A DNA stretch of 64,000 nucleotides from assembly GCA_024137785.1 (NCBI GenBank), contig JAHRHZ010000041.1:22133784-22197783 (forward strand), in the 5' to 3' direction. Below the pieces are notes generated by a model, which had not been told where the DNA came from, made no database searches, and worked only from the letters and a program-made list of their open reading frames with translations. Of the stretch, positions 16,665 to 57,164 are shown piece by piece. The translations under genes were made by a program, and so were the position numbers. Position 1 is the stretch's first letter, and each line of letters begins with the position of its first letter. Origin of the DNA: Ginglymostoma cirratum (Eukaryota).

Positions 16665-16768
16665 CACTGATATGAAAACGAAATGTTGAAAATACTCAGC
16701 AGGTCAGATAGCATCTCTGGTGCAAGAAATAGACTTATTGTTTCATGTTGATGCCCTTTCATTGGAAC
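16665..16768 (-). mobile_element. Degenerate hammerhead-bearing short repeat (Penelope-derived family)
   Basis: Minus strand: ccaatgaaagggcatcaacatgaaacaataag...agagatgctatctgacctgctgagtattttcaacatt, the same family as 51481-51589 and 32343-32472. Confidence 0.6.
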
Positions 16769-17238
16769 AACAATTTCACTTTTTTTTAAGCCTGTTTTTG
16801 TACACTCCCGTGTAGTTATGGAACAGGTGGGCTGTTGAATTTTCTTGACCACAGCTTCAGGATTGGCAGCCTGTGAAATCAATTGCTTTTCCAGAGGCAA
16901 GTATTTGCATGAGGAGCTGCCGTTAACAGGGCAGGCATGAACTGATTAAATGCAGGACAGGAAAGTTAGTGGAATGAAATCGTCACTGATTATGTGATTT
17001 GACCCACTGGAGTGGACAGTTGAAACAGCTCAATAAGTTCACATTTCACAATTTCTCTTGTCTTATGAACTGCTAGTCCTATTGCATTTGCTTTGCTCAC
17101 TTTCGTTGATGATGTCAATGATGTAACTAAGAGATAGCTGCTCAATGATATCGGTACTCCAGAACTGCTTTGGGCCTTGGTGTTCTTGAAGCAGTGCTGA
17201 AACAATAATATTGGTCACTGACAGTCAGTTGGATCCCA

Positions 17239-18425
17239 CTAGGGCCACTCAGCTCCTAAGCTCTTTACAGCGTTGGTAAAAACATGGAAAAAGAGCAAAA
17301 CTCCAATTGTAAGGAGAGAGCAACTGCCCTTGACATCAAGGTCACATTTGACTGAATGTAGCACCAAGGAGCTGAGCAAAACTGGGTTGATGGGAATCGG
17401 GGAAAAACTCTTGGTTGAAGTTATATCTAGCATAACGGAAGATGGCTGTGGATGTTGGAGGTCAACTACCTCAGTTCCAGGATATCACTGCAGTAGTTCC
17501 TCAGGTCCAACCATCTTCAACTGCTTCATCGATGACATCATAAAGTCAGAAGTGGAGAGATTTGCAAGCTAAGGGCATTTACTGATGAATTTGCAATGTC
17601 CAATACAACATGCAACTCTTCAGATATAGCAGCAGGGCGTGTTCATGTGCAGCATTTTCAGCTTTCACCTTGGGATAATAAGTGGCAAGTAAGTTCATGC
17701 CATAAGTGCAAACTATGACCATTTCCAACAAAAGGGAATCCAACTACCATTCTTTGATGTTCAAAGGGATTATCATTGCTGCATTACGCACTGTCAATAT
17801 CCTGGTGTTTACCACTGATAATAAACTGAACTGGACCGTAAATACTATTGCTATAAGAGCAGATCAAAATAGGGTAATTCTGCAGTGACTAACTCACCTC
17901 CTGACTCCCCGATGCCTCTTCAACCTTTGCAAGGCAGAAGTCAAGAGTCTGATGGAATGCTGTTCACACGCTGGGATGAATATACTCAAGTAGCATGACA
18001 TCCTCCAGGATAAGATACTCCATTTGAATGGCACCAATCCACCATCTTCAAATTTTCCCTGACACCACTGACACAGCGAGGCAGCAACGTGTACCATCTA
18101 CAAGATGTACTGCAGAAACTCAGCAAGACACATTTGATTGCACCGTCCAAACCTGTGATTTCTAACATCTGGAAGGACAGGGGCTGCAGATATATGGGAA
18201 CGCCACTGCCTTGAAACTGCCCTCCAAGCCACTCACAATCCTGACTTAAAACTGGGTCAAAATCCTGGAACTCACTTCCTAACAACACCGTGGCTGCATC
18301 TACACCAGATGAGCTGCAGTGTTTCAAAAGGGCTGCTCATGATCACCTTCCCAAGAGCAATTAGGGATGGGCACTAAATGGTGGCTGCATCAACAATGCC
18401 CACTTCCAGTGAAATAATTGAAAGA
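17239..18425 (+). mobile_element. RT/3' fragment of the CR1-group LINE family seen at 49686-52884
   Basis: gggccactcagctcct...gcccttgacatcaagg...caaccatcttcaactgcttcatc (RT motifs, frameshifted), plus the shared 3' tail caccttcccaagagcaattagggatggg. Confidence 0.8.
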
Positions 18426-21089
18426 AAATCTGCTTTGTTTGTGCAGGGGTGATGAACTCTATTCTTTAAACAACCATTCCTGTGTGGTAATGGATATGAA
18501 TTGGTAGTTATTATTAGGGTGTACTGCTCTTGAAGGCGTAGACCGATGGTACTTGTTGGTGACACTCATTGTCTTGTTCACTTTGACACCAACTGCTGAG
18601 TTCCATCAGCAGCAAAAGACCAGAAGAATGAAACATTTGTGTCTGTGATTGCACCGGCACTTCCAGCAGTGAAGCAGTGCATCAGACCAGCACACAGTCT
18701 ATATTAATCTGTTGAGCACAGCAGCAATATTTCTTTACAAAATTCAGGAAGTTAACAAGTTAGATTTTAAAATTTCATTTCGAGATTTAACTAAACCACG
18801 CCTTTGCGGGTTCTGCACACTGCTGCAATTCAATTTGATGATACTCATCTGGAAACATGCAAGACGTTTTTTAAAAAAAATTATATGGAAAACAAGAACT
18901 TTAAAGTAGTTAAAAAGAAGCACCCCATAGTTTGAAGGATTCTATTTACATATATGGTGGTGTTTGTCTAATTAGTAATTTTGAGACTGTTCAATTGGCA
19001 AATGGTATCTGTGAATTTAACCTGTTTAACATGTCACTTTATTTATCATTTAGGTTGTAATTTGCTTGGCTTTGTTTTTACTTGCAGAAAGTTGACTAAT
19101 CTGACTTAATTTCACATCCTTATTAGCGGTGAGCATTGTGAGCAGCCTTTTTTCAATATAAGCTGTGGTCTTAAATAAATGAGTATGAGCCATTCCTCTC
19201 TCCATCTCCATCAACCTGCAGTACATTTAACATTTGTACCCCTAGGACATGTGCCTCCTGCAGAGAGTTGGGACGATCACACTCAGTGTATCAGGATTCC
19301 GTCATTCACATTCTTACCTCTCTAGTAGGTTAATGTTAGGATGGCTCAGGGACTGTTCGTCCTCACTGCCATGCTACACAGTAAGCCCTCACCTCATGGT
19401 CAGCTGCTATAAGATTTTGGCATGGAGAAAAATCAAGATGGGCCAAATATGTAATTCATTATTATTTGCGTGTGGAAGTAAATTGAAGGAATAATATTGT
19501 TGCTGCATTGATTTACATCTTAATGGACTTTCCAGTAAAAATCCAATGCATACACATTCACAAACTGAGCTTTGAAACAAAATTACATTCTAATTTACAG
19601 TCTTTTAATATAATTCAATTTCCATTGATTCTACACTCTCAACGTAGCCTCCTCCTATTTAATATTCTTAAGTGGCTTTTTGCCCTTTTCCCTGATGTCT
19701 GACAGTGTGATCCTCCTATCCCTGATCCAGTGACCAAAGGAATGAAACTTGCTCAGCTGAAAGCTGCTAGTTGCCTATCAGTGAATGTGTATTGGAAAAA
19801 TCCCTGTGACCTTAATGGAAATAGTGCCTTTCTTGCAATAATTAGTGTTGTGAACTGAAGAAATCCCAAGATGACAGATTTGATTTTGCTGCAAAGTGCA
19901 TAGCAAGGATGCAGTTATCCACCACATAAGCTTTATCTTTGCTCAGAAACTGTGCCCAAGCAGAGTAAAAAAAATTCCAGAGACAACACAAAGCAAGTTG
20001 ATTTGTTTATTCGTAGTCAACACAACTTTAGCAACCACTGTGGCAGATGGTCATTGGTTGCTCGGCAGTCAAGTCTCCAGGAATTTCTGTTCACAGAATG
20101 TTGCTTCTTTCCCCGTGGTGAAAGAGTTACAGGACTGTATAGCATAAATACAGAGTAAAAAGCTGGGAAGAATTGTGGGAATACATTAGCACAATAAACA
20201 GCAGCATTATTACTGCTATCTGTCATTTGATGTATGTACAATTTGACTCTGCCACAGTGGATAATATTTTTGATTAGCATTGTTGAGTCTTAGTGCCTAA
20301 TGTTATAACAATACTTAAAAAAACAGGAGAAGTAAATAAGGGAAGTACATCATTGATACTTTACTAAAATGGATTCCAGTGTATACATGTAGCCATTCTG
20401 TTGGATGCTCCAAAACCTTTAACTGAAATTACTCTAATATTAGCTTTGGAATGACATGCAAGCACAGGTGCTGAAACTGCAACTTTGTCTTGTCAAGGAA
20501 AAATTTTTTTCTTTGATGTGTCACACCTGCACATTGTGCATTGATATTGTTACTGGGTATCACAAGAGAAAACACTCAATGTCTTTTTATGTTGATTTGC
20601 TAGAATTAGAATCTCACCAGGAAGGTGGTAACTCGCAAGTGTTAGAGTTGTGAATAAAATGCAAGTCTGATGTAAAAAATTACATCCTGATGTTCTTAAT
20701 AATACATTTTATATCTCAAATTGGTTTAAAAATTATTAGAAAAGGTGGATGGATTGAGTCCAGGGAATAACAGTGTTTCAACTTTAAATACAGTACCGTA
20801 ATTCAGTTGTAACTTTCCAAACAGAATTGAAAAGTAGCCAGGTGCAGGGTGACTGAAAATAATTGGACAGCTCTTCCAAAGGGTCACTGTTTGCACAATG
20901 GGCTGAATGGCCTTCAGCTCTGTGATTTGTTGGTTTCTTTGCTGAATAGAATGTGAAAATCAAGGTGTTGTTGTTATATACGGTATTCTGACTGCTATCT
21001 GGTACACAAGTATCCAAAATTCTCATGCAGATGCCAAAAATCTTATACAAGTTTACCATTTTTATTATTTTCTTCAGAAATGTCTGAAC

Positions 21090-22020: not shown

Positions 22021-22052
22021 TCTGACTTTCATGTTGAGAACTTTCATGTTTA

Positions 22053-22365
22053 GGGCGGCACGGTAGCAGCGCTGCCTCACAGCACCAGGGACCCAGGTTC
22101 GATTCCACCCTCGCATGACTGCCCGTGTGGAATTTGCAGATTCTCCCCATGTCTGCATGGGTTTCCTCCGGGTGCTCTGGTTTCCTCTCACAGTCCAAAG
22201 ATGTGCAGGTTAGGTGGATTGGCCATGCTAAATTGCCTCCTAGTGTTCAGTGATGTGTAGATTAGATGGGTTATGGGGGAATGGGTCTGGATGGGATGAT
22301 TTGAGGTCGGTGTGGACTTGTTGGGCTGAAGGGCCTGTTTCCACAGTGTAGGTATACTATGATCT
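22053..22365 (+). mobile_element. HE1 SINE (V-SINE), near full length
   Basis: tRNA head GGGCGGCACGGT...GGTTCGATTCC, V domain (gggtttcctccgggtgctctggtttcctc..acagtccaaagatgtgcaggttagg) and CR1-type tail gggctgaagggcctgtttcc. Confidence 0.9.
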
Positions 22366-25379: not shown

Positions 25380-25640
25380 ATCATGTCTGCATGAGTTTCC
25401 TCTGGGTGCACCTGTTTGTTCCCACAGTCCAAAAATGTGCAGGTTAGATGGATTGACCATGCCAAAAATTGCCCTGCAGTGTCCAGAGGTGTGCAAGTTT
25501 GGTAGGTTAGCAATGGTTAAAAACCCCAGGGTTACGAGGATGGGGTGGGGGGTGGAGTGCGTTTGAGTGGGATGTTGATTGGAGGGTTGGTGCAAATTCG
25601 ATGGGCTGAATGGTCTCTGGACTGTAGCAATTCTGTGATT
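25380..25640 (+). mobile_element. 5'-truncated HE1 SINE
   Basis: V domain cccacagtccaaaaatgtgcaggttagatggattg and tail gatgggctgaatgg. Confidence 0.8.
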
Positions 25641-25928
25641 TGTCACATGTCCCTATTGAACATAGAATTGGAATTTACAACAGACAGATAGACCATTTGC
25701 CATAGTTTGTGCTCCATGCCATTCCTCTTGCTATCCGGCTTAATTTAATCATGTCACCATAGCTTGCTGTTCCTTTTCTCTCACATGCTTAGCTGGCTTA
25801 CCTTTAAATGTGTCAATGCTGTTCAGCATAATTATTCAAAGTGGTCACGAGCTCCACATTCTCACCAGCCCCTTACTGAGGAAGCTTCCAAGTATTGCGG
25901 AATAAAGATGCATATTTTTCAGTTTTTC

Positions 25929-26650
25929 ATGTTGCATTCAACAGACCTGTTTGCAAGAAAAGCAAAGGAGAGAAAACAACACCTTTCTGCATGAGAGGAG
26001 AGTGCTGATTGGTTGACAAGAGGGCTGTTATTGATTGACACTATACCATGCAGAATGCCTCATTTGATGATCACTGATAATTAAATGCCAGCCAATACTT
26101 TGAACACTCACAATGTGGAGTCCAACATTAGGTGCAATTCTATGATTGCACAGCACTTGCTGAATAATTCGAACTGTGTGAGGAATTATTCTGATGAACA
26201 GTTCTGGGCTGTTAGTCAGGCCCGCCTGTATGCCGACTTGTGTGTACTGGGAACTACATATATTTATGCACATGGCCCTGCTTTTTGCTAACAGAAAAAA
26301 TCACATACACACAAACTGACCCTGTTTCAACTCAACAAAACTGGTGACAGTCATAATCTTAATTAATTTCTCAGGGCATCGCATTGACTGGTCAAAGTAA
26401 TTCATGCCTGATTTAAAATTTAAATACTTTTTGGTAGTTGACTATCAATCATCATTAACTGGCACATTCTTCAGCGCCTATATCAGAGTCCAATTGCCAA
26501 CCAATCAGCACTCTCCTGTCATGCAGTAAAAATGTTGCTTTCTCTTTCCTTTGGTATTTCTTGTGAACTGTCCCCATGAGTGCAAGATAAAAAGCTGTGA
26601 CAAAATGGGTCTTTTTTCAGTAATATTCAGGTTCTGCACTTTCAAATGAC
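25929..26650 (+). mobile_element. Penelope-like element remnant with inverted pseudo-LTR
   Basis: 26085-26291 encodes a GIY-YIG C-terminal-like segment (IAQHLLNNSNCVRNYSDEQF...LGTTYIYAHGPAFC). ~25950-26020 is an inverted copy of ~26494-26567. Decayed hammerhead-like motif at ~26572-26601. Confidence 0.75.
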
Positions 26651-28592: not shown

Positions 28593-28642
28593 ATAAAGCT
28601 AGCATTTAATGAATCCCCAGTATTTGCATCAAACAGTTGACA

Positions 28643-28995
28643 GTGGAAGGCATGCTGGCTCAGTGGTTAGCACTGATTCCTCACAGGGACCCAGGATTGA
28701 ATCCAGCCTTGTGCGAATGTTTGTGTGGAGTTTGTATGTTCTCCCCCTGTCTGCGTGTGTTTCCACCAGGTGCTCCAATTTCCTCCTCCAGTCCAAAGAT
28801 GTGCATGTTAGATGAATTGGCTATGCAGAGTTGCACTGTAGTGTCCAGGGATGTGCAGGCTGGGTGGTTTAACCATGGTGAATGTGAGGTTACAGGGATA
28901 GGGTGGGTCTGGGTGAGATGCTTTTTGGAGGGCTAGTGCCTGGGCTGAATGGGCTGAATGGTCTCTACCTCCATCTTAGGGATTCTATGATTCTA
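28643..28995 (+). mobile_element. HE1 SINE
   Basis: ggctcagtggttagcactg head, V domain ccagtccaaagatgtgc, tail gggctgaatgg...gattctatgattct. Confidence 0.85.
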
Positions 28996-32342: not shown

Positions 32343-32472
32343 GTTTCAAAAGAAGAGTTATATTGGGCTGAAACATTCTCTGTTCGCAGATGCTGCCAGA
32401 CCTGCTGAGTTTCTCCAGAATTTTCCATTTTAGTTTTCCATTTTAGCTCCAACACACACAGTATTTCACTTT
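32343..32472 (+). mobile_element. Degenerate hammerhead-family short repeat
   Basis: caaaagaagagttatattgggctgaaacat...cagatgctgccagacctgctgagtttctccag; catalytic core decayed. Confidence 0.6.
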
Positions 32473-33366
32473 TATACTAATTCCATAAAAGTCTCTTTAG
32501 CATCTTTGTAATATGTGATGAGTATTCTAGAGGATAGACAAGGGCTCATTTTGGATATTTCTTTCGTATTCGTACTGATTATGATGGATGTTGCTGCTTC
32601 ATGAGCGCCTCCAGGCTGTGTTTATTTGTTCTGGGTGACAAAATGATCCTGCCAAGCCTAACACTCTGGCAGCTGTCTGACTCTAATTGCTCTGTGGCTC
32701 GTTTCTCTTCTATATATCCATGAGCTGCAAATAAGCCTGCCTACTGAAAGCAGCAACCACATATACATTTACTCCAGCCAAGGCCCTGTTGCTGGGCAAT
32801 GCCTCAATATATCAAATGATCTGCATTGGACCAGATTTCTCAGCAGCCTCATAATCCCTATGGCTCTCAACTGATTGTGCAGCAGTTTGGAGCTGGACAA
32901 GAAAGCCCTCTGCTCAAGGGAACTCAAGGCTTCCCTATTAGCAACATGAGCATTAACAAAAGATAGCCTGAGAAGAGACATCTGCTTCCAGATCTTTCAG
33001 ACTATTCAGACTATTTCAGACTTCCAGACTATTTCCTGCTTTTAATAAATGGCCAATCATGCCACAGGTAGGGACAGACTCTGCCACAGTTTTCCACAAA
33101 GATTTTCAGAGCGTTCCACAGTCTTGTCAAATGACTGCAGTGTGTTCATGCTCAGATAGGTCTGTTAGATTTGAATCTCTTGGGTGTTGCAGTGGAGTAG
33201 AGATGAGAGTTGATCAGTCAGCAGATTCCTGCTCTTCCATTATACTTGTTCATTTGTAAATTCTGAATTACCCGATAGTTCCAAATTGACTAAATTAACC
33301 AGAATAGATGTGATGTATTATGTCTCATGGGTCATTCAGCAGCATAGCTTTAAGAGACATGCTGAT

Positions 33367-35800: not shown

Positions 35801-36445
35801 ATTTTGTAGCATTGAAGATGAGGATCTTTGTGGAATCTCTTTTTCTGGTATAACGTCTTGTTGTGTACTACCTTTCACGACTTGATGTAGCAGGACTAGA
35901 GAGGTTAGATCTCATCTGTTGGTTGCAGAATTTTGTTCAGCCTTCTCTCTCACCTCCTGATAATGCTATTCACCAAGCAAGTAGTCTTGTATTGTAGCCA
36001 GATTGGCTCCTAATTTTTAGGTATGTATCATGCTGTTCAGTCATGCCATACTGAATACTTCATTGAGCCAAGGTTGATCTTCTCTCCTCATGGTAATGGT
36101 AAACTGGGACATATGCTGGATGATGACATTTCAGATTGTGTTGGAGTACACTTATGCAGCTGTTGATAGCCCATAGCACATCATGAAAGACCGGTCTTGA
36201 ATTACTAGATATCTTTGAAGTCTGTCCAATTACAACGATGATTGGGCCACACAACATGATGGAGGGCATCCTCAGTGTAAGGATGGGACCTACTCTCTAG
36301 AAGGACTGTTTTGTGGCACTCTTAATGATACTGTCTTGGACAGATGCATCTGCAGCAGGCAGATTGACGAGGAGAGTGTCAAGTATGTTTTTCCCTCTTG
36401 TTTACTTCTTGACTCCCTCACCTTTTAGTTCTAGACTTTTAATGA

Positions 36446-37024
36446 TTTTGGAGTAGATTTGTAGCTCGGGTTGTGGGTGTTGAGGTTGGTTGGCTCGCCG
36501 AGCTGGTTTGTTGTTCCACAGACGTTTCGTTAGCCTGCTTGGTAACATCATCAGTGCAGCCTCCGATGAAGCGTCAGTGTGTTTTCCCACCTGGTTTTTA
36601 AACTCAGGAGTCCGTCAAGCTCGATTGCCTCACTTCCAGTTTTCCTTCGTCGTGGCGTGTATATGGGATCGAGTTCTACGTGCTTATTGATGGCTTTCTT
36701 TGTGAAGTACCAGACTTCTGGGAATTCTGTGCTTGCCTCTGCTTAGCTTGTCCCAGGATCTTGGTGTTGTCCCAGTTGAATTGGTGGTTCTCCTTATCCA
36801 TGTGGATTGAGATGAGTGTGTATTGGTCATGTCTTTTTGTAGCCAGTTGGTGTTCGTGCACGACCAATACTCGCTCATCTCAATCCACATGGATAAGGAG
36901 AACCACCAATTCAACTGGGACAACACCAAGATCCTGGGACAAGCTAAGCAGAGACAAGCACGGGAATTCCTAGAAGCCTGGTATGTGTCATGTCTACGTT
37001 GGCTCGGCGAGCCAACCAACCTCA
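36446..37024 (-). mobile_element. Penelope-like element, truncated and inverted, with 13-bp TSD
   Basis: TSD AGACTTTTAATGA at 36433-36445 and 37025-37037. GIY-YIG C-terminus (EHQLATKRHD..LISIHMDKENHQFNWDNTKIL.QAKQRQAREFLEAW). Inverted arms 36708-36828 and 36862-36983. Confidence 0.9.
36516..36558 (-). ncRNA. Minimal type I hammerhead ribozyme in Penelope pLTR (intact core)
   Basis: Minus strand: UGCA-CUGAUGA-U-GUUACC-aagca-GG(c)UAAC-GAAAC-GUC^UGUG. Both conserved boxes, stem II, ACGU palindromic stem III and a 4-bp stem I are present. Confidence 0.8.
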
Positions 37025-37809
37025 AGACTTTTAATGAGGTCAGATTCCATCATCCACCATGATGTAATCCAATCCCATATTCCATGAACATTACCTGGAT
37101 TATGAGTCCAGAGACAGAGGAATGTGATGTTTGTACGTAATGGTTACTTGTGATAAATGTCTCTTGGATTCTTCAGTGTCACATTCATGCTTGGTTATTG
37201 GTCATGGGAGTTGACATAAACATTGCCATGTCAGGTAAACCACTCTGTTGGAGACAAATATGTATCAGAACATGGCTGTGCCAGTAGGGGTATAGGACAT
37301 GGTGCTGTAAGATTACAGCTATTTTTTACTGTGAGTTTGTACTTGTTCCTGAGGAGATAATGAAGAGCCATTTTTAAGAATGCTGATTGCAAGGCACCCT
37401 CAAAACAATACAATACACCCTGTGTCATGTTCTTATAATGAAAATGAACGCTTGAGTTGTGAGAGAGAAAATTAATGGGAAACTGATATTCAACCTCTGA
37501 TTTCCACACAGCCGTATTACTTACTCACTTGATTTTAAAAATGTCCTAGTCAGAGAAACTTCAGAGTGTGAAAAGACTGAATTCGACACTGCTGCAGTTA
37601 TCTCCTTCCTGTTCACTTTGTCTGGAAGCAGAGGAGTTTGAAGAGCATGTCCAATAAAAAGTATTATTTTTGGAAAAGTAATCTCCTATCAGAGAAAAGT
37701 ATTTTAGAAACAAATTGCGGAGATCATGTTTGCCAGTAAGCCAGATATCTTTTTGGAGTGCATGCATGAGCGTTGCTTTTTCTTACTAATTTATTTCAAG
37801 TAAGTTATT

Positions 37810-44213: not shown

Positions 44214-44813
44214 ATCCATGACACGATGACACTCAGAACTGGGTGAAGTGGTTGATGTATCAGGGTTGGTCTGTTAATGGGTTTTAGACTGTTCTTTGTC
44301 GGGGGACTATGAAACTGGGAGCTGTGAAGAGAATATCTCCAAAGATGAGGCCAGGGCAAGCCCTACGACGGCTATCAGGAGCCTTTTTCTGAACAATTGA
44401 TCAAGGCTGTTTCAATTGTTGTTTGAATTCTAGTTCTTTTAGAATTAAATTCATTATTCAGCAATTGCTTGTACAGTCATAATGTTCTTGAATCAGTTTT
44501 ATTGCATCATTTAAAAGTGGAGCCAATTCATCATGAATATTAGTTCAGAAAGGAGCAGTAAAGTGACTCATGATGTTAGCTTCAGACTTAAAGTGAAAGC
44601 TATTGACGGGGAAAAGTGCAGCAGGAGACTGTGAGAAGAAAACACTGAATGTGGGAGGTTAGTGTGATGTATGTTGGAATAGGAGGGTAGGGTGATTAAG
44701 CATTACGCTGGATAGCTGGAAGCAAAGCATTTTTTGTATCTTTTCCCAGCTGAATGTGAATTATTTGGAGTCAAACAGGTTAATATGACAGGCAAACCTA
44801 ACACCAAATGAAT

Positions 44814-45037
44814 CATGAGATAGTAGGAACTGCCGACGCTGGAGAATCTGAGATAACAAGGTGTAGAGCTGGATGAACGCTGCAGGCCAAACAACATCAG
44901 AGGAGCAGGAAAACTGACATTTTGGGTCTAGACCCTTCTTCATTTTCTGAAGAAGGGTCCAGACCCAAAACGTCAGCTTTCCTGCTCCTCTGATGCTGCT
45001 TGGCCTGCAGTGTTCATCCAGCTCTACACCTTGATAT
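44814..45037. mobile_element. 224-bp palindromic non-autonomous element with back-to-back hammerhead motifs and 11-bp TSD
   Basis: TSD ACCAAATGAAT at 44803-44813 and 45038-45048. Arms of ~85-90 bp fold around ~44943-44947. Plus strand reads CTGAAGA-A-GGGTC-ca-GACCC-aAAAC-GTC at 44947-44974. Confidence 0.85.
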
Positions 45038-45644
45038 ACCAAATGAATACTCCTCACTTCTGGTTCATATACTCACATCCATAATCATCATAGTATACTT
45101 GTACATAAATATCACTCCATTGACTGGGTCACCAGTGTTGTTGATTTTAAGTCTCAGTCAGACCAAAATGAAAACTGTCTTAAATATGACAAAACAGTGA
45201 TCAGTGTTAATAGTATTGGGAAGAAATGCGATCTACCTTGTTACTGCTTTGGATGAACGGAATCGTGCCAGCGCCACAGAAATCTGTGGAATGACAGTTA
45301 CTGGTGCAAGTTATTTATTGATTAACTTTCACATTTTTTGAGCTTGCCTATGGCCACTCTGCATTAAATGCACCACTATAAAGCACAAAGTTCCAGGGAT
45401 ATCCGGGCCATTATCTGATATGCTAATTACACCATGTATAATCTGTGATTGTATCACTTGACAGCAATTAAATGGCTTATAAATTGATGGTCTATGGTCA
45501 GTATGCTTAAATAGCTTGATGCAGTGAGAATATTATTGCATTTTGGGTAAATTAATTTTGATCAATGAGACAACAGTAGGGTTCCCCAGTGCAGTTTGAA
45601 AATCAAAGCTGTTTCTTGACTTGTGCACGCAGCTAAAAATACTT

Positions 45645-46243: not shown

Positions 46244-49200
46244 TTTATCCACAAGCCATTGCCTACACTACTATTAAAACACACTACCAACAATCTGAAC
46301 CTAAAAAGGAATAATTTACGTGCCGCCTTTATTGCCAGTTCATGAGGCTGTTCTTGCAAATGTAGTCAGATGAAACTGTTTGACAGATCATGTGCTGCCT
46401 GACATTGTGTATCATCACAAACCTATGCTTCCTTTCTTTATAGCCACCTGATAATGCTTCAAGCAAGTAGGCAGATATTCTACAAAGGATCTTTATTTTT
46501 GTCCAATTCTTCTTCTGTTTACCACAAGGAGGGAGTTTGTTTTTCCCTGTGGAACATCCAGGCACTCTCCAATCAATTGTGGTTAGGTGTTATTAAAACC
46601 TCCTTTGCCCTAATTTAGTCTCAGACGAAACCGTCTGTACAGCACCACTATCCACCCTGTCAACTCAGTGCACCGCCTGTAAACCCTGGCTGTTTGCGTT
46701 TACCCACTTGTGTCAGAATGGCTTTGTTCAATTGCCCTGACAATGACATTTGGAATTGGAATTACATCGGTCAGTTTCATTTGACATAGGAGATTTCTAC
46801 TCAGAAACATCAGAAAAGTCTACATGCTAAAGTTGAAATGTTCAAGCCTATACTCAGTTTCTTGGGGAACCACATAAACTAAACAACTTGCACATAGCTA
46901 TGCACAACTTAGTTTATTCAGATGCTTTATTAACAGGATAAATTCCATCTTATAATTCATTGCTGAGTAAGTGCATGGGCTTGAGAAATCCAGAAAATTT
47001 GAAAGGTTTGCATTCATGGAATAGTTTTTTAAATAAGTTCCATGTCTATCAGATCCAGCATAGCATTTTAATTCTCACTGCATGGGGTAGTCTGTTTTGA
47101 GGATGACAGTTTTCAAATGAAATCCTTTAAAATCGGGAGGTGTTGTGCTGCAACTGACAGTGAACAGAAAACTCCCTTCCTTACAAAAGGTACATTGAAG
47201 GAGCTTACAGATCAATAATCAACTTGATTGGCCATGTAAATGCACACCTTTGGTGACTATCAAGTCCTGATAGCCTGCTTCAACTGTGTAAAGAAATAGA
47301 ACTTCTAATGATGCAGCTCAGTCTAACATTTCAGTTCCCAACAGATCTATTCTTTTCACTTTGTTGGGTGATATTGCCTACTTAAGACTAAAACCTGAAT
47401 GACACATGATTTGTCAGATTTACTGCAGTTGGATTCAAAATATCGAAACTAATTTTAATTGGACTTTCACAGGCCAGGCTGTCTGAATTTAAGCCAATTC
47501 TGAGGCAAAAGAACACTCTAATTGCGCTGCACACAAAAGTCATTTTATGAACTACATTATTGTAAGGAACTTTTATAAATCATACCATCCTTCAGGGTTT
47601 TATGCTAATGTACTAGGAATACAGCTGGTGCTTTGGTATAAACTATAGTTTCTTGAGGGTGTAACTGATTAATAACTTAGTAATGTTCTTTAAACACTGA
47701 AGGGTTTCAAAAAAATGTACACCTCGTTAGTGATTGCGTATTTGGGCTACTTGGTCAGAATCAGTTTGCAGAGTTGAGTCCTTTTGAATCCGAGTGGAAA
47801 TTACTCTCAAAAACATTGAAAAAAAATTATACAAGGTGCGTATGTCTGATATAAACCTAAAATATGAGGTAATTTTGGAATTTTAATTTTAATTGGATTT
47901 ATAAATGGTGTTTGGAAGAAAATGGTGATTGTAAGACAGCATTTTGATTTCTTCAACAGATGTATTTCTCTAATTTCACTGCAGTCATTGTTTACAATGT
48001 CGGTATTCATATTTTTGTGGCATAAAGGCTCAGCTAAAATGTTTGAAAGGGGTATGCGTACTTATGCAGCTGAAATAAGCTGCATTCAAAAGAAATTGTA
48101 AGCTTGGGAATTAACTCAATAAATTTTGATTCCAAAATAAATGGGTGTAATGAATTATGAAAAAGCTGCGTTTAATCTCCATAAACCTGCACAGGTTGAA
48201 TAGCAGTCAATCAGATAGTGTGTAAATGTGAACTCCAATACCAAAGCACTTTTTCAAAGTTTCAGAACCAAACTCAGGGTAGTTTGCCGTTTAGGCACCA
48301 GTACTCAGGAATGTTGTCTGTTGCTATGGGTAGCAATGGATCATCGCAGATTTGTGCACCATTTGCTTCTATGTATTGTTGCTGGGCAAGATCACTTACC
48401 ATTGGTAAGAACTAGAGATAGTGGCTGTCAAAATCAGAGAAAGCCATCACTCCAGTTTGCTAATTTACACTACTTACTCTAATTGTTTGATGTAAAGTCA
48501 TATTTTTATAAACTGGTGAGAAAATTAGATGACAGGTAAGGCCCATGGTCTAGGACCTCCACTACCTGTGCTGATCAGGGTGAAGTTGAGGGAAATCAAA
48601 ATCATTAGTGAAGTGATGGCAACTTTCAGTGTCAAATGCATTCAGATTTTAACAAGCATAGGTCATAGAAGGATAAGGAGCTGGTAAGTAGAAGGTAAAT
48701 GTTGATGAAGGGCTTTGAGAAATAAGTTTTCTACAAAGTTGCTGCATTCTGTAGTTGCATGTTGCTTATAGCCTTCACGAATTGCCTAGTCCATTAAGCA
48801 GATCAATAGAAAGCCAAAACAATTGTGTATGAGTCCTTTTGCTGTCTCAATGTTGATAAACTTTTAATTTCGTTTTTGGCTGCCATTAATTCAATAGAAC
48901 GGCTGTTGGCCTGTATTTCACTGTTAGGAGCAAAGTGATGGCCTCACTGCTGACCTCAGGAAAAGCACCTACAAAGGTCTACTGATCCCATTTTCCCTGT
49001 CATTAATTTGAATCTGGTGCTGATTCAATGAGATCTCAAGGCCAAGTAATGGTCATATCATTGAACAGGATAAACAGCCATTTGCATTGATGTATCCCCA
49101 CAGACACCATGCCTGGAAGAAAACTGCACCGATTATCCTTACCTTTTGATTAAGTTTTACATAAATAATTGGGACTTCCACATGGTCTTAAGACAGGAGC

Positions 49201-49685: not shown

Positions 49686-52600
49686 TGGCCTAGTGGTATT
49701 ATTGCTAGACTATTAATACAGAAATTCATCGAATAATCTGGGGACTGGGGTTCAAAACCTGCCACAGCAGATGGTGGAATTTGAATTCAAAGAAGTATAT
49801 CTGGAATGAAGAATCCACTGATGACTATGAAAGCATTGCTGATTGTCAGAAAAATGCATCTGGCTTACCGCTGCCCTTCAATGAAAGAAGTTTCCCATCC
49901 TCACCTGGTCTGGCTGACAGACCAACAGCAATGTGGTTGACTCGCAGTTACCCTCTGAAATTGACTAGCAAGCCAATCAGTTCTGTGAATGGCCACAAAG
50001 TCTCAAAAAGGAAATGAAACCAGATGGATCACCTGTCATCAACCTAGGCACTGGAAGAGACAATAGCAAAAACAGCCGTGTTGACCCAGCAAAGTTCTCC
50101 TTAATAACATCTGGGGGCTAGTGTCAAAATTGAGACAGCTGTCTCACAGACAATTCAAGCAACGGCCTGACGTAGTCGCCTCATGAAATCGTACTTGACA
50201 GACAATATTCTAGCCGCTAACATCAACTTCCCTGGAATTGTCCTGTCACACTGGCAAAGGTGGTGGCACAGTGGTATGCAATCATGAGGGATCCCTCAAA
50301 TTTGACTCAGGATACTATGAAGTTTCATGGCTACAGGTTAATCATGGGCAAGGAAACCTCCTGCTGATTACCATGTACCTTGTCTGATGAATTAGTACTC
50401 CTCCATGTTATACAGAACTTGGAGTAGGCACTGAGGGTGGCAAGACTGCAAAATGTGCTCTGGATGGAGGATTTCATTGCCCACTGCCAAGAGCCTGCAG
50501 GAGAGTGGGTCAGTGGCCGGTGGTGAGGAAACCAATAAGAGGAAAAAACATACTTGACCTTATTGTTACCAATCTGCTTCCTGCAGATGCATCTATCCAT
50601 GACAGTAGCAGTAAGAGTGACCACTGCACAATCCTTTTGGATACAAAGTCCTGCTTTCACATTGAGAATACCCTCCATCATGTTGAGTGGCACCATCGAC
50701 ATGCTAAATGGAACCGACTTTGAACAGATCCAGAAACTCAAGACTGCGCCTCCATGAGGCGCTGTGGGTCATCAACAGCAACAAATTTGTACTCCAGTAC
50801 AATCTACAACCTCATGGCTGGGCATATCCCCCAGTCAACCATTGCCATCAGGCCAGGCTAATGGAAAGGGCAGCAGGGCATGCCAGGAGCAGCTCTAAGC
50901 ACACCTAAAAATGATGTTTCAATCTGGTGAAGCTACTAAACAGAACTACTTGCATACCAAATGGCATAAGCAGCAGGGGAAAGACAGAGCTAAGCAATCG
51001 CGCAACCAACGAATCTGAACTAAGCTCTTGCAGTCCTGCCACATCCAGTTGTGAATGGTGGTGGATAATTAAACAACTTGTTGGAGGAGAAGAGTCCACA
51101 GATATCCCTATCCTCACTGATGGAAAAGCTCAACAAATCTATGCAAAAGATAAGGCTGAAGCATTCACAGCCATTTTCAGCCATAAGTGCCATGTAGATG
51201 ATTCATCGTGGTCTTCTCCAGTCATCCCCAGCATCACAGATGCCAGAATTTAGCCAACTCGATTTGCTCCACATGATATCAAGCACTGGATATTGCAAAG
51301 GCTGTGAGCCCTGACAACGTCCTGGCATAATACTGAAGCCTTGTGCTCCAGAACTTGCTGTTGCCTTAGCCAAGCTATTTCAGTACAGTGGCAACACTGG
51401 CACTTACCCGACGGTGTGGAATATTGCCCAAGTATGTCCTGTATAGAGAGAGAAGGAAATTCCAAGCCAGCCAATTGCTGAAAATATCAGAAAATGCTCA
51501 TAAAACTCAGCAAGCCTGGCAGCATCTGGGAAAGAAAGTAGAGTTTAACGTTTCGGATCCAGTGACTCTTCTTCAGAACTGCTTCAGAACAGCCAGTTAC
51601 TGCCCCTTTAATCTACTCTTGGTTATCAGTAAAGTGATGGAAGGGGCAGGTGCCAGCAAGATCACCTGCCACTTGCTCACTGATGCCCAGTTTTGTTTCC
51701 TTCAGGGCCACTCAGCTCCTGACCTCATTACTACCTTGGTTCATTCATGGACAAAGGAGCTGAATTCCAGAGGTGAGTTGAGAGTAACAGCCCTTGATAT
51801 CAAGGCCACAGTCATCCAAGTGTGGCATCAAGGAGCCCTAGTATCAATGGGAATCAGGGTACAAACTCTCCACCGGTTGGAGTCAGAACTGGCACGTAGG
51901 AAGATGGTTGGAGATCTGTCATCTCAGCTCCGTGACATCTCTGCAGGAGTTCCTCAAGGTAGTGTCCTAGGCCTAACCATCTTTTAGTTGTTTTATCATA
52001 AGGTCAGAAGTGGGGATATTCACCAATGATTGTGCATTATTAGTGACTCTTCAGACACTGAAGCAGTCAGTTGAAATGCAAGAAGATCTGGACAATATTG
52101 AGGTTTGGCCAGCAATTGGCAACTGATATTCTCCCCAGCGAAATGCTAGGCAGTGACCATCTCCAATAAGAGACAATCTAACCATCATCCCTTGTTGTTC
52201 AATGGCCTTACCATCACTGAATCACTGTCAACATCCTGGGGTTACCATTGACCAGAAACTCAGCTGGACTCACCGTATAAATACAATTGCTCCAAGAGCA
52301 AGTCAGAGGGTAGGAATGCTGTGGTGAGTAACACACCTCCTGACTCCCCAAAGCAGTCCAATATCTACAAGATACAAGTCAGAATGCATCACAAATTATG
52401 CTGTGATACTCCCCACTTGTCTGAGGGTGCATCTCCAACAACACTCAAGAAGCTTAACACTATCAAGGGCAAAATAACTGCTTGATTGGCACCCTATCCA
52501 CAAGCACCATTCTCTCCACAACTGACATTCAGTAGAAATAGTGTATGTTATCTACAAGATGCACTGCAGAAATTCATCAAAGATCCTTTGACAGCACCTC

Positions 52601-52884
52601 CCAAACCCGCAACCACTAGAAGGACAAGGGCAGCAGATACATGGGAACACCACCACCTGCAAATTCCCCTCCATGTCATTCACCAATCCTGATTTGGAAA
52701 TATTTCGCTGATCCTTCACTGTTGCTGGGTCAATATCTTGGAATTCCCTCCCTAAGGGTATTGTAGGTCAACCTACATCACATGGACTTCAGTGGTTCAA
52801 GAAGGCAACTCACCACCACCTTCTCAAGGGCAACTAAATGCTGGCTAGCCATTGATACCAATATCCCATGATTGACTAAAAAAA
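49686..52884 (+). mobile_element. Near full-length decayed EN-RT LINE (CR1 group) with tRNA-like 5' head and no visible ORF1
   Basis: A-box TGGCCTAGTGG (49686-49696) and B-box GGTTCAAAACC (49749-49759). APE motifs NNIWGL..PDVV..ESYL from ~50100, then P.RGKNILDL, SDH. RT motifs VTALDIKA and GVPQGSVLG. A-rich 3' end. Confidence 0.9.
51481..51589 (-). ncRNA. 109-bp hammerhead-bearing insertion inside the LINE (core boxes intact)
   Basis: Minus strand AGUU-CUGAAGA-A-GAGUC-acug-GAUCC-GAAAC-GUUA-AACU at 51580-51542. Flanked by cagccaattgctg / cagccagttactg (13 bp, 2 mismatches). Confidence 0.7.
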
Positions 52885-54167
52885 TGAATATTTATAGAAC
52901 AGATTGAGGAGGATAAAAGAAGATTTTTATGTTACAAAGTCTGAAAAAAGACAGTAGCACAAAACTGACGGAAACCTGCAGTGTACATTGATCCATTGAA
53001 TAAAGTTTACTAAAATATGATTTCACATTTACACTGCGCATTTCAACGGGTTGTGAATGAGTGTGATGAATACTGAGAAAAATGGCACATAGTAATCTGT
53101 AATTCAGTCTGATTTCCTGTCATTATTTCAAAGTTGTGCTATTTTTATTAAATTACATTGTGAATTCACAGAAAGGAAAGCACCAATAATTAACATCTTG
53201 TAAGCCCTACTCTGCATTTGGAACTAATTGTCCCTATTGCTTTCAGTACCTGAGCAATCATTGCAGCACAGAAATGGCAGGCCGTGTGCTACATGAAACA
53301 GCCTGCTGCTCTTAAAGTACTGAACTGACAGTCTTCCAATATTGCTTTTATCGAATGGAACAGCCTGCCTTACAGATTCTCTGCTACCTCCTGTTATTGA
53401 CTCTGACCTTCAAGGCTTCATATAAGCCACTCAGTTACATTAAGGTCAAGGTTATGCAGGGATGAAGAACATTAACCTTTTTCTGATGAAATGCCTGCTC
53501 CAGCCTGGGTGGCTCTATCGAATTATCCCTGCTTGAGTGCTCTCCAGATGCAGTTATAATTTGTTTATTTGCAAGTTGTGTAAGTCAGTTTTAAAACTTG
53601 CTGCATGTTGAGGTTATTTAGCCTGTTCTGTGGCAATTAGCTGGCTCACAATCTCACAGAAAATGATCTCTTTTCTCCCCAGTGATTTTTCAATCTTGGA
53701 AGACATTATCACCACAGCTAAAAAGGACACTGATCACAGAATGCCTTTGATTCAATTTTTCTTGCAACTAAACAGATGGGTCAGTCATTTCTGCTGTGCA
53801 ATTTTGATTTTTCTTCCTACTTTCTATGCCAACAGTGTCAAATATTTCATTTAATTACCAATTAAAATTGTGTCTCCCAGAACACGACATTGCTTGTGTC
53901 AGTCCTTGTAGTGGTATTGTCCTGTGCTGCTCACATTGCCATAGAAAAACCCGAAATGGTAGAAAGTGTTCAGCAGGGCAAGCAGCAAATCTGTACAACA
54001 TGTACAATGAAGACTAACAGCCCCTGGTTTTGTTTACTTTTATTGCTGCTCTATTGTAATTGTATTGCCAGTTAGGACGTATCAGAGATTTTCAGTTAAT
54101 AATTCCACCTATTCTTAGGACTGAATAAACAAAGCTAATTCAGGCTGTGCATATCTGGTACATTCAA

Positions 54168-55228
54168 TTAGAGTCATAGAGGTACACAGCATGGAAACAG
54201 ACCTTCAGTCCAACTCGTCCGTGCTGACTAGATAACGTAAATAAATCTAGTTCCATGATTTGGCCCATATCCCTCTAAACCCTTCCTATTCATGTACCCA
54301 TCCAGATGCCTTTTAAATGTTGTAGTCGTACCAGCCTCCACCATTTCCTCTGGCAGCTCATTCCATACATGTGGTTAGCACTGCTGCCTCACAGCACCAG
54401 GGACCCAGGTTTGGTTCCACCCTCAGGTGACTGTATGTGTGGAGTTTGCACATTCTCCCCGTGCCTGTGTGGGTTTCCTTCGGGTGCTCCAGTTTCCGCC
54501 CACAGTCCAAAGCTGTGCAGGCTAGGTGGATTAGCCTTGCTAAATTGCCCATAGTGTTCAGGGATGTGTAGGTTAGGTGTGTTAGCCATGGGAAGTTCAG
54601 GGTTACATGCAGGGATAGGGTAGGGGGATGGGTCTGGGTGGGATGTTCTTTGGAGGGTCAGGCCGAATGACCTGTTTCCACATTGTAGGGACTCTATGAT
54701 TCTCTCTATGACACTCTGCATGAAAAAGTTGCCCCTTAGATCCCTTTTATATCTTTCCCCTCTCACCTTAAACCTATGCCCTCTAGTTTTGGACTCCCCC
54801 ATCCTGGGGAAAAGACCTGGCCTATTTAACCTATCCATGCCTCTCATGATTTTAAAAACTTCTATAAGGTCACCCCTCAACCTCCGATGCTTCAGGGAAA
54901 TAGCCGCAGACTATTCATCCTCTCCCTATAGCTTAATCCTCCAATGCTGGCAAAATCCTCGTAAATCTTTTCTGAACCCTTTCATGTTTTACGACATCTG
55001 TAGCAGGGAGACGAGAATTGAACGCAATATTCCAAAAGTGGCCTAACTAATATCCTGTACAGCCTCAACATGACCTCCTGACTACTGTACTCAATGCACT
55101 GACAATAAAGACAAGCATACCGAAAGCGTTCTTTGCTATCTTGTCTACCTGCGACTTGACTTTCAAGGAACTATGAACCTGCACTCCAAGGTCTCTTTGC
55201 TCAGCAACAGTCCCCAGGACCTTCCCAT
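54168..55228 (-). mobile_element. CR1 LINE 3' fragment interrupted by an HE1 SINE
   Basis: LRGDLIEVFKIMRGMDR...GHRFKVRGERYKRDLRGNFF; tail tagagtcatagag. Confidence 0.9.
54371..54700 (+). mobile_element. HE1 SINE nested in CR1
   Basis: gtggttagcactgctgcctcacagcaccagggaccc head, V domain and tail ctctatgattct. Confidence 0.9.
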
Positions 55229-55507
55229 GACAGAATCCAGGAAGCTAAGTAAACCTTAATTAAAATAGCATTTTTGACTGTTGGACTGTTGTGCCCAATT
55301 CTAGGTACCACACTTCAAGAAGAATGTGAATACTTTGGAGGAGATTTACTAGAATGGCTCCAGGAATGCAGTTCTGTGTGGATCATCGGGAGAATTTGAG
55401 GATTTTTTTTTCCCTTGAGAAAAATGGCGTAAGAGGAGAATTGATAGAGGCGTTCAAAATTATCAACTTGTACAGTTCTCTTTGACAGTGTAAGACTTCC
55501 TAAAGTT

Positions 55508-56345
55508 CTTCACAGGAATGTGAAGTCACAATATGATACTGAGCTACATAAGGAGATGGGGTCAGACAACAAAAACCTGGCAAAAGAGGTAGATTTTAAG
55601 GCATGTTTTAAATAAATAGTGAGGTAGAGAGTCAAAGGGGTAAAGGGACTACCAGAATTTATGAACTTGATAATTACATACACAGCTGTCAATGATGGAG
55701 TCAATAAAATAATGGATTCTCAATAGTCCAGAATTAAAGGAGCATAGATAAACCAGAAGGTTCTGACACTGGAGGAGATTGCAGCTGTAGAGGGGGAAGA
55801 GGCCCTGGAGGGACTTGAAAACAATGATCAGAATTTTCATATCAAGACGTTGTTTAGCTGGGAGTCAGTTTACATCAATGAGCTCAGGGGTCATGGTCAA
55901 ATGTGAGTTAAGACACGAGGAACAGAGTTTTCAGTGTCCTCAAATTTATAGAGGGTAGATTGTTGAAAGCCAGGAGTGTGTTGTAATAGCCAAGGCTAGA
56001 ACTAATGAAGGCATGAATAAGGATTTCCAAGCAGATAAGCTGAGGCAGAGCAGATTGGGCAATCTCACAGAAGGAGAAAGGGACAACATTAGGAATAAAG
56101 TGGAAATGTGATCAGAAGCTCATCTAAGGAATCAAGTATGACAATAAGATTTTTAACAGTCTAGTGCAGCCTAAGACGTTGCAAGGAGATGGCTGGAATT
56201 GGTGGAGAGGGAACAAGTTGTAAAGAAAATTCTGTTCATTCAATGCTATGTGTTGGACAAGCAGTATGATCATTTAAACACAACGGAGATGTCAAGAGAG
56301 ATTGTGATGAGGTAGAGCTGGATATCATCAGTGTGTCCATGTTCA
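55508..56345 (-). mobile_element. L2 LINE RT/3' fragment
   Basis: TDDIQLYL (YADDTQLY-like) and KILIIVFKSLQGL.PLY.CNLL, typical of the L2 ORF2 C-terminus. Confidence 0.75.
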
Positions 56346-57049
56346 CTGGAGCAGACTGCACCCTCAAACAATTCAAGATTTATTATGCTTGAGTGGCAGA
56401 CTGGGCCTTCGTGGCATGGACCGTAGCAGCATGTGTTGGCTAGCTGACAAGCAACAGGAAATTTGTGGTGTGGCAGGAGTGGAAGTTGAATGTTATCATC
56501 CTGAGAGAGGGCAGCAGGTTCACATTCCATGGACCAACCTGAAAGTGGGGAGAGAGTGGAAAAAAAGTATTGGGTTGGATGCTCAGCCATAATCATATTG
56601 AATGGCGGAGCAGGCTTGAAGGGTTGAATGGCCTAGTGCAGTACCTATTTTCTGTATTTCTAATCCCCACTGCCTAGGCGTTGACTCCTCAGCATTCCTG
56701 GTAATCTATTGGAAGATGGATTGCTGAACTGCTGTGATATGGTGTAAATCTCTTTGCTCATTGTAATTTGTAGCCATGATGACAGCAAGGTGAATTGCAT
56801 AACATCAGATGTGAATTGACTGTGGATAACCTCTGAGTGGAAGCTGATCATGGGGAAATAGAAACTGAGACATCAGCTATCCAACACTGCCCCATTGTCA
56901 GGTCCACAATGTGCTGTTGATGTTGGCCGCCTCTCCCATGCTAAGATAGCTGAGCTCCAAACTCTGAGCAAAGCCCTATACCAAGCTGATGACTGCTTAT
57001 CCATACTATTTGGCTTTAAACACAGGCTTTCTGCCAGGGTTTTCAAAGC

Positions 57050-57164
57050 ACAGGGTGTTTTTGAAGAGAGAGTGAGAGTTTTAATTCAGGGCAATGACCA
57101 TTCAGATAACGTCAGATGAAGGGTCACTGACCTGAAATGTTACTTCTGTTTCTTTCCAGAGATG
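57050..57164. mobile_element. Degenerate palindromic hammerhead-family repeat
   Basis: cagatgaagggtcactgacctgaaatgtt at 57113-57141, preceded by a decayed inverted copy (ttcagggcaatgaccattcaga). Confidence 0.6.

Follow-up and report, generated by a model that had tools for sequence, protein, structure and literature searches.

The short hammerhead-bearing repeats in a stretch of 64,000 nucleotides of Ginglymostoma cirratum DNA (hereafter the window) are likely to be run-off or aborted copies of the pseudo-LTR (pLTR) ends of Penelope-like elements (PLEs). Their template was probably uncut RNA, because their start lies just before the ribozyme motif and not at its cut site; a new ribozyme-driven element is unlikely to account for them. 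All positions below are those of the window.

Hammerhead loci and sequence groups

Seven hammerhead loci had been predicted, and all are present close to the expected positions (16665, 26572, 32343, 36516, 44814, 51481 and 57050), each with hammerhead-shaped sequence; as they were chosen for this motif, the set is biased towards copies that include the core. Hammerhead loci exceed chance expectation: a strict minimal-hammerhead descriptor returned one match, on the minus strand at 36554, whereas 200 shuffled sequences averaged 0.005 matches. The Penelope-type minimal type I hammerheads with palindromic stem III of the original prediction were recovered, recognisably decayed in most of the incomplete arms. 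Intactness of the motifs held to a small extent only, all 12 scored core positions being found in 2/10 arms (36554 and 51576, both minus strand), with core positions lost in the other eight; the tenth arm, at 25944, had not been predicted. The motifs are minimal and not canonical, stem I measuring 0–5 bp across arms. An Rfam search gave no hammerhead among seven matches at E≤10; minimal motifs probably fall outside the Rfam models, and this null result is therefore not evidence of absence. Hammerhead helices were predicted at near-zero probability in monomer folds. No weight was given to these values, because they are expected for minimal motifs and because the fold of 44814 took in part of the other arm. 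Tables of contig differences were left out of the judgement of core conservation, since exact seeds and contig breaks both affect their alignment.

The loci do not form one family, as had been proposed, and fall instead into four sequence groups. Group A consists of 44814 and group B of 16665, 32343, 51481 and 57050, and the Penelope-type remnants 26572 and 36516 make up one further group each. Groups A and B are moderately related (z 3–13); the remnants are unrelated to A or B (z ≤2.4) and likewise to each other. With leave-one-out profiles, 4/4 group B loci were recovered (E 9e-11 to 8e-5). The predicted common tail, GATGCTGC..G.CCTGC, was found with two substitutions or fewer at four of the five non-coding loci, but not at 57050. 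Pairwise comparison and profile search led to the rejection of two further candidates, 14418 and 14797. Borderline profile matches were recorded at 53947–53993 (E 0.1) and 47266–47332 (E 0.03). Scans of metagenome and viral contigs with the A/B core pattern yielded no stretches; none of the runs containing the sequence was recorded as RNA among the matches listed, and run X23 gave 0 reads. Elsewhere in the window, an exon-like signal peptide with a GT donor was noted at 611–674; the second-exon motif looked for was not found within the window.

The group B stub at 16669–16772 (minus strand, C3 at 16765) has a decayed hammerhead with 9/12 core positions (leave-one-out E 7e-9) and a possible 8-bp target duplication (16661–16668 and 16773–16780; 8 exact, 17/300 random pairs scoring as high). 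The stub at 32343–32478 (plus strand, C3 at 32347; E 1e-9), also decayed, has U4 and G5 changed and contains a 13-bp doublet. The stub at 51477–51581 (minus strand, C3 at 51576), situated inside a LINE remnant, retains 12/12 core positions and a GUU triplet, with one stem II mismatch, an A–C next to the base of the stem. It is preceded at 51582–51590 (minus strand) by a 9-nt sequence repeat of its own start (core −3 to +6), and a possible target duplication of 9 bp, one of them mismatched, was seen at 51468–51476 and 51590–51598 (44/300 random pairs as high). This possible duplication agrees with a paralogous LINE. At 57050 a group B head-to-head pair is made up of a heavily decayed left arm (57050–57110, minus strand; z 5.9 to the right arm) and a right arm (57111–57165, plus strand, C3 at 57113; E 8e-5) in which U4 is changed to A and which stops before the full GATGCTGC motif. 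Both inverted dimers, 44814 and 57050, are real, the latter being weak (17/20 nt). No target duplication of 11–13 bp was found at 16665, 51481, 32343 or 57050, and at 32343 and 57050 none rose above the background of 300 random boundary pairs.

Insertion layout and ends of the units

At locus 44814, two arms that are 90% complementary stand head to head. The left arm (44817–44942, minus strand) starts at U4 of the core and carries a tail (44817 to approximately 44852); the right arm (44944–45037, plus strand) starts 3 nt before C3 (44947) and is without the tail, which is present on one side only (33–36 nt). G12 is changed to A in both arms, and stem I has 2 bp in this copy. The pair is flanked by an 11-bp target duplication (44803–44813 and 45038–45048; 11 exact, 2/300 random boundary pairs as high). 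Duplications of 11–13 bp had been claimed for two of the five non-coding units; the claim stood for 44814 and not for the other four.

The layout of 44814 (head-to-head arms, one-sided tail, duplication) corresponds to the published signature of PLE insertions and argues against an origin of the units from the termini of a DIRS-type (tyrosine recombinase) element. The inverted repeats found at two loci would suit such an element, but the reverse transcriptase (RT) linked to the units (see below) resembles PLE loci with GIY-YIG, and DIRS1 integration is described as leaving no target duplication (PMC3266345). Because 44814 has such a duplication of 11 bp, a DIRS-type partner, which the original prediction had retained, is unlikely, and derivation of the units from DIRS ends is improbable in the extreme.

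Both Penelope-type loci had been called Penelope remnants. This is correct for 36516, which includes a GIY-YIG piece, whereas the Penelope-like character of 26572 is judged from its layout and by visual inspection alone. At 36446–36858 (minus strand) a Penelope/Poseidon-like remnant, with homologues 86–93% identical, comprises a GIY-YIG C-terminal piece, the 3′ UTR, the pLTR and a one-sided tail of approximately 34 nt (36446–36479, minus strand). The tail is missing from the inverted arm (36859–37024, plus strand), which is also without the hammerhead region, and the predicted 13-bp target duplication was confirmed at 36433–36445 and 37025–37037. The intact minimal type I hammerhead (36516–36559, minus strand, C3 at 36554) has an extra nucleotide after A9, a CG palindrome, GUC and a stem I of 5 bp, and a reading frame that begins with an ATG where stem II starts runs on through the tail. 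P0005, a homologue of this remnant, contains RVT_1 at E 1e-6, and P0003 and P0021 have no zinc-finger linker in the stretch before GIY. Judged by its sequence, 36516 carries the marks of the Penelope/Poseidon clade, namely the lack of a zinc-finger linker before GIY-YIG and an ORF start at stem II.

At 26572 a pLTR-like arm (26494–26625, plus strand, C3 at 26573) holds a decayed hammerhead with 8/12 core positions and a palindromic AGCT in stem III. An inverted pLTR-like arm (25893–26019, minus strand, C3 at 25944) with a second decayed hammerhead matches 26494–26625 at 76.5% over 132 nt. A broken reading frame at 26030–26330 (plus strand) resembles, by eye and by motif, the C-terminus of an endonuclease of Penelope type; nothing was found for the frame at 26085–26288 in Pfam, protein search, Atlas or pairwise comparison. 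As far as sequence comparison tells, neither remnant is a parent of the short units.

Each A/B arm consists of a hammerhead core and a short downstream stretch. All seven begin approximately 7 nt or less from the front edge of the ribozyme, within a 9-nt span; the 5′ ends cluster within approximately 8 nt in front of the core and approximately 30 nt upstream of the cut site, and none of the unit ends falls at the cut site itself. The core 5′ of the cut site is kept in 7/7 A/B arms, from which it follows that the template was uncut; a cleaved template would lack this part, and the claim of ribozyme processing was not upheld. Hundreds of contigs per run depart from the reference of the 51481 unit 2–5 nt off C3, at 51578–51581 (contig counts for this unit are not copy proportions). 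Copies of the 51481 unit (4/4 runs) and of the 44814 unit (3/3 runs) continue upstream of the core with shared sequence, and the upstream sequence common to other copies amounts to 11–22 nt; no full-length parent turned up in DNA.

Ordinary random 5′ truncation might also be considered, the common start then stemming from the original selection of the loci or from stalling of the enzyme at the hammerhead fold or at the preceding pyrimidine tract. PLE insertions are described as highly 5′-truncated (PMC8557442), and both window remnants extend into the coding region, but the contig breaks at 51578–51581 and the narrow span of the seven arm starts make this account quite improbable. It differs from run-off or aborted copying only in the origin of the fixed 5′ start.

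On the 3′ side, other copies of the 44814 unit end at 44817 in 3/3 runs with cover; an end at 44850 is listed for run X1, with joints at 44850/44851 in X2 and X6, and the two group A ends (44817 and 44850) are one tail length apart. Among the 15 fold-back joints listed (257 more exist beside these), 11 join ten different left positions to 44942–44944, so that the fold-backs are not one fixed unit. An inverted, 5′-truncated copy lies beside the pLTR at 4/7 loci (26572, 36516, 44814 and 57050). Target duplications vary in length and are clear at 2/7 loci, weak at 2/7 and absent at 3/7; a one-sided tail of 30–40 bp was found at 44814 and 36516 and is not resolvable in the older loci. The transcript of the inverted pair is predicted to fold as a single hairpin (−155.9 kcal/mol); since each transcript contains the two copies in opposite senses, the inverted dimer cannot act as a cleaving dimer.

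These ends bear on the proposed retrozyme-like nature of the units. As retrozymes, the units would stem from multimeric transcripts that paired hammerheads cleave and that are then made circular, reverse transcribed and inserted, and their monomer offspring would lie in the window. Non-LTR retrozymes resemble the units in being non-coding, in their type I hammerhead (here with palindromic stem III) and in their relation to PLE pLTRs (PMC7229834; bioRxiv 10.64898/2026.07.22.740005), and they are reported from the one chondrichthyan sampled, with monomers common (bioRxiv 10.64898/2026.07.22.740005). They are, however, defined by head-to-tail repeats, at least two complete ribozymes and circular RNA (PMC7229834; bioRxiv 10.64898/2026.07.22.740005), those of animals being described as 150–450 bp repeats with canonical hammerheads (PMC7229834). 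The units are monomers or head-to-head pairs with mostly broken, minimal cores that depart from the canonical form with loop 1–loop 2 contacts, no head-to-tail repeats were found in the window, and 0/12 tandem-repeat rows in the window cover a whole unit. As the unit ends also lie away from the cut site and PLE insertions are marked by tails on one side and by inverted pairs, a retrozyme origin is very improbable and the term is not supported.

Links to reverse transcriptase and endonuclease

The predicted GIY-YIG/RT partner most likely inserted the units, according to the PLE insertion marks and to links in gene models. A protein search with the unit gave 33 matches, three of which (P0022, P0025 and P0035; gene models, possibly spliced) show an RT or endonuclease link; in most of the others, the unit is joined to unrelated sequence from the host or from a LINE. 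P0022 contains an RT motif-C stretch (54% identical to L011 over 63 residues) together with an antisense copy of that stretch. In P0025 an antisense RT stretch directly precedes a group A unit (z 4.2–5.5 in 4/10 loci), and in P0035 an endonuclease-like C-terminus precedes the unit (P 0.009 against the endonuclease region of L008 chosen beforehand; 0/10 significant against whole loci). No alignment was obtained between P0022 and P0005 or between P0035 and P0003. Pfam detected neither RVT_1 nor GIY-YIG in the 32 new protein matches, the Atlas returned unnamed clusters with RVT_1 only at 0.89, and a word-based search of proteins, for which the 103-residue fold-back frame served as query, gave one match, without RT or endonuclease.

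The comparison drew on 16 metagenome loci, with L013–L016 left out as chance matches. L008 comprises RT, a CX4CxxC linker, GIY-YIG and an inverted 5′ copy; since L011 and L006 are cut short within the endonuclease, a pLTR could show in L008 only. The hammerhead of L008 lies 98 nt after the stop codon and matches the right arm of 44814 at 26/35 nt (z 3.1, equal to the best of 60 shuffles, which is modest alone); no such match was found for the other seven units tested. The sequence links point to a Neptune-type element as the likely parent of group A, a third element besides the window remnants. The CX2–5CxxC linker was seen in the distant relative L008 and not in the shark parent itself, and Nematis also has the linker. 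For group B, no direct RT or endonuclease link was found among the protein matches and metagenome loci.

At least six junction readings occur among the seven fold-back gene models. P0010 and P0007 share the reading of 44814 (KMKKG), and since P0010 appears to be another locus, the fold-back may have been recopied. Such recopying would suit a true non-autonomous, SINE-like family with its own pLTR transcription, recopied in trans by a Neptune-type enzyme, the hammerhead remaining uncut as a structural or protein-binding signal. Both ends are sharp, and tens of thousands of contigs match per DNA run (70,663 and 39,053 for the 44814 unit, counts that are not copy proportions); a discrete short element would explain the sharp start and the very high abundance equally well. 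In addition, pLTR sequence is reported to suffice for mobilisation in trans (PMC3846280), and putative non-autonomous PLEs are described in Chlamydomonas (PMC8557442). Against this stand the many different fold-back junctions in contig joints and gene models; the repeated junction could recur via 2-nt microhomology, and if the RNA starts at the first base of the stub, upstream promoter parts would be lost. We consider a SINE-like family unlikely. It is similarly doubtful that the units are an abundant, protein-free passenger of 100–230 nt with the uncut hammerhead as its front recognition structure and with some fold-back dimers spreading as units.

Proposed copying route and relation to known elements

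Under run-off or aborted copying, the element's own enzyme would copy only the front 100–140 bases of an uncut RNA into a new site. We infer that the point just before the core would be the 5′ end of the element RNA, transcribed from a promoter in the pLTR; cDNA running off this end and joined to the target would give a monomer stub, and a second priming on the other strand, or a fold-back, would give inverted dimers, whose junction would differ from one event to the next. The group A parent would be Neptune-type and group B a related, older lineage, and the stubs are probably dead on arrival. The Penelope transcript start is described as lying inside the pLTR (PMC2377424). For the enzyme of Poseidon of Anolis carolinensis (PAc), nicking of AT-rich DNA and RT starts inside the RNA at either tail edge are reported, ribozyme cleavage being unneeded (PMC11167929).

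The units share with PAc the two RT starts bounding the tail and the copying of uncut RNA, and 36516 further resembles it in having an ATG where stem II begins, the cut following 28 nt downstream (PAc: 26). In contrast, stem II bears no ATG in groups A and B, and group A is linked to an RT that is Neptune-like and not Poseidon-like (PMC11167929). Insertions of endonuclease-bearing PLEs are described with a 30–40 bp tail at one end, a head-to-head inverted copy, a target duplication of 8–10 bp or longer and solo pLTRs, as here (PMC8557442, PMC3846280). Unlike those insertions, the whole insertion in the window is often just the end module of 100–230 bp, without a coding remnant; the solo pLTRs of Adineta, described as without duplications, are ascribed to recombination or deletion (PMC3846280, PMC8557442). 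Metazoan PLE hammerheads resemble the units in the type I core, the extra nucleotide between A9 and G10.1, the G10.1–C11.1 pair, the palindromic 15.2–16.2, the short stem I and the occurrence mostly as single dispersed copies and opposite-strand pairs, but the stem I of group A has only 2 bp in 44814 (PMC4209133). Solo and opposite-strand minimal hammerheads were interpreted there as truncated PLEs; the accessible portion of that paper names no shark and gives no fixed start of short copies.

As a ribozyme discovery the window adds little, minimal hammerheads in PLE ends, scattered singly or on opposite strands, having been published since 2014. No description of a fixed start just before the ribozyme was found in the literature searched, whose coverage leaves most subscription journals outside. 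The value lies in the geometry, that is, in many short copies with 3′ ends at two tail sites and 5′ ends just before the ribozyme. If the units were a protein-free passenger, the fixed start would record in the genome an intermediate of Penelope retrotransposition that resembles a strong stop. The geometry bears on the regeneration of the PLE pseudo-LTR and on the way inverted copies arise, and makes one model of these steps testable.

Hammerhead arms and locus anatomy

All seven hammerhead loci of the original prediction were found in the window; its list, however, lacked an arm (hammerhead-bearing copy) at 25944, and with this and both arms of 44814 and 57050 the total is ten. Cores were scored at 12 positions, with offsets placed by eye from a local alignment of the arms: two of the ten were complete (36554 and 51576, both minus strand), and the other eight kept 4–11 positions. 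A strict hammerhead descriptor gave one match in the window (36554), versus a mean of 0.005 over 200 shuffles, and missed 51576 because of an A–C mismatch in stem II. The suggested Rfam check returned no hammerhead in the window; Rfam microRNA matches at 36797–36893 and 44896–44993, below curated thresholds, are the fold-back centres of insertions. Both complete-core arms are antisense to the presumed host gene, and the core is broken in all four host-sense arms (26573, 32347, 44947 and 57113), numbers too small for testing.

Local alignments did not sustain a single family, and instead gave group A (44814), group B (16665, 32343, 51481 and 57050) and two unrelated remnants. Leave-one-out profiles recovered all four group B loci, and the group B profile matched the group A arms (E 2e-7 and 3e-5), with zero matches in the reversed window. 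Borderline further group B relics lie at 53947–53993 (E 0.1) and 47266–47332 (E 0.03), both minus strand. In group B, a branch-point-like word comes after the cut site, then a pyrimidine tract, AG and ATG, an arrangement resembling a 3′ splice site (32370–32395, plus strand; 51520–51550, minus strand; 57135–57165, plus strand). Penelope-like elements (PLEs) are known to retain introns in the region of the pseudo-LTR (pLTR).

The 64,000 bases, which include no N, contain an exon-like stretch (611–674) in CpG-rich surroundings, with a 21-residue signal-peptide-like start and then a GT donor. This exon may be IGSF9B-like; a Pfam search of it gave no match. Because no expected second-exon motif was found in the 64,000-nt window, all seven loci may lie within one first intron of a plus-strand host gene. 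The window also carries four copies of one SINE, presumably of the shark HE1 type (22064–22363, 25382–25586, 28662–28991 and 54376–54700), several CR1-like LINE pieces, a minisatellite of about 12 copies of a 33-nt unit (58745–59168), and inverted repeats (60914–61048 and 61546–61680; 135 nt, 94% complementary, 497 nt between) that look like a small DNA transposon.

Target duplications were sought at all seven loci and were absent at three. The 13 bp predicted for the Penelope copy at 36516 were borne out; of the 11–13 bp predicted for two non-coding units, those at 44814 (11 bp) stood, whereas the candidates at 16665 (8 bp) and 51481 (9 bp with one mismatch) could both be chance matches. Locus 36516 consists of the duplication, a one-sided tail of about 34 nt, a pLTR with an intact hammerhead, a C-terminal GIY-YIG piece, an inverted arm lacking both tail and hammerhead, and the duplication again. 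Its five homologues are 86–93% identical, one carrying RVT_1, and the frame through its tail opens with an ATG where stem II begins, as described for Poseidon of Anolis (PMC11167929). Locus 44814 has this layout minus the coding piece (head-to-head arms, a 33–36 nt tail on one, and the duplication) and is predicted to fold as a single long hairpin. In the remnant at 25893–26625, inverted arms flank a broken reading frame, an endonuclease piece as judged by eye only.

Links to a probable parent element

The protein-read profile of the group A unit gave 33 matches among 1.84 billion representatives, mostly gene models running through a unit. In three of them the unit is connected with coding sequence of PLEs: P0022, with an RT motif-C stretch and an antisense copy of that stretch; P0025, with antisense RT immediately ahead of a group A unit; and P0035, with an endonuclease-like end ahead of a unit (P 0.009). 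Each link is weak because gene models may be spliced; taken together, they point to a Neptune-type element as the group A parent. With the P0022 RT stretch as query, 16 loci were retrieved, 12 of them true relatives. One of these metagenome loci (L008) contains RT, a CX4CxxC linker, GIY-YIG and an inverted 5′ copy (92% over 326 nt); PMC8557442 describes such a linker for the Neptune or Nematis type. Over 10 kb, nothing matches the 44814 right arm better than the hammerhead that L008 carries 98 nt past the stop codon (26 of 35 nt), with a z of 3.1 that the best shuffle equals. Group B would be connected to a PLE parent solely through its likeness to group A. No full-length parent of the stubs (the 100–230 bp units) was seen.

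Copies, start points and template

Sequencing runs were aligned to 44700–44985 (5,137, 70,663 and 39,053 contigs in three runs, 0 reads in a fourth) and to 51455–51610 (198 to 1,957 contigs in all four); these figures are contig counts rather than copy proportions, and ends further upstream are out of view. Group A copies have a sharp 3′ end at 44817 and a second near 44850; beyond the core on its upstream side, other copies run into a C-rich stretch that they share and that fades after 11–22 nt. Among the 15 joints listed for 44814 (257 more exist), 11 connect ten different left positions to 44942–44944, and the remaining four are probably a consequence of the reference having two arms. Loose ends past the 44817 tail have about 12 letters in common in all three runs, which would point to the element running on in partial tandems or else to a preferred target. 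Contigs diverge from the second reference at 51578–51580 (72, 107 and 89 in run X2), where common letters fade within about 5 bases, and at 51581 (380 in X2), with an identical continuation of about 17 nt in all four runs. A 9-nt repeat of the 51481 stub's own first bases (51582–51590), directly ahead of the stub, resembles a tiny partial tandem, and its start also lies 3 nt before C3 of the core. Among run differences at 51549–51555, one CpG shows both decay directions, and at the CpG spanning C11.1 and G12 the tolerated change alone is listed at ≥5%; selection in source elements could explain this, as could an alignment artefact. Because single-depth contigs span the flank–element boundary at 44814 and 51481, these insertions are probably common to related species.

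Relative to C3, the starts of all seven arms of groups A and B range from about 7 nt upstream to 1 nt downstream, and the hammerhead cut site is some 30 nt downstream. The arms retain the core, which a cleaved template would lack; the template was therefore uncut. For Poseidon of Anolis carolinensis, PMC11167929 describes reverse transcription that begins inside the RNA at two tail edges, with cleavage not required, and in PMC2377424 the Drosophila Penelope transcript begins inside the pLTR. A stub would thus be a cDNA begun at a tail edge and running off the RNA 5′ end after 100–140 nt, and inverted dimers would come from second priming or fold-back; the fixed start of the arms is the part of this run-off model that was tested, and the transcription start is the part that we infer. 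Three points count against this model: the gene models P0010 and P0007 have the 44814 junction reading in common, a full-length parent is missing from the sequences found, and the sharp ends agree equally well with the stubs being a short family that is itself recopied. Stalling of the enzyme has most steps in common with run-off, so that confidence in the two overlaps. Minimal hammerheads need a same-sense pair (dimer cleavage by Lunse et al., as cited in PMC6765202), which an inverted dimer cannot form.

Comparison with known element types

The retrozyme-like character originally proposed was not upheld against the types described in PMC7229834 and bioRxiv 10.64898/2026.07.22.740005, since neither head-to-tail tandems nor canonical hammerhead motifs were found in the window. 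A DIRS-type partner is likewise unlikely: target duplications are present, versus none in such elements as described in PMC3266345. Minimal hammerheads in single or opposite-strand copies have already been interpreted as truncated PLEs (PMC4209133); the stub families may be listed in the supplements of that paper and of the preprint, whose described sampling includes one chondrichthyan. Four features of PLE insertion are present (minimal hammerhead, inverted copy, one-sided tail and target duplication), and for the fifth, a parent with RT and GIY-YIG, the observations stop at the GIY-YIG piece at 36516 and, for group A, at gene models and the relative L008. The stubs behave like a PLE insertion product.
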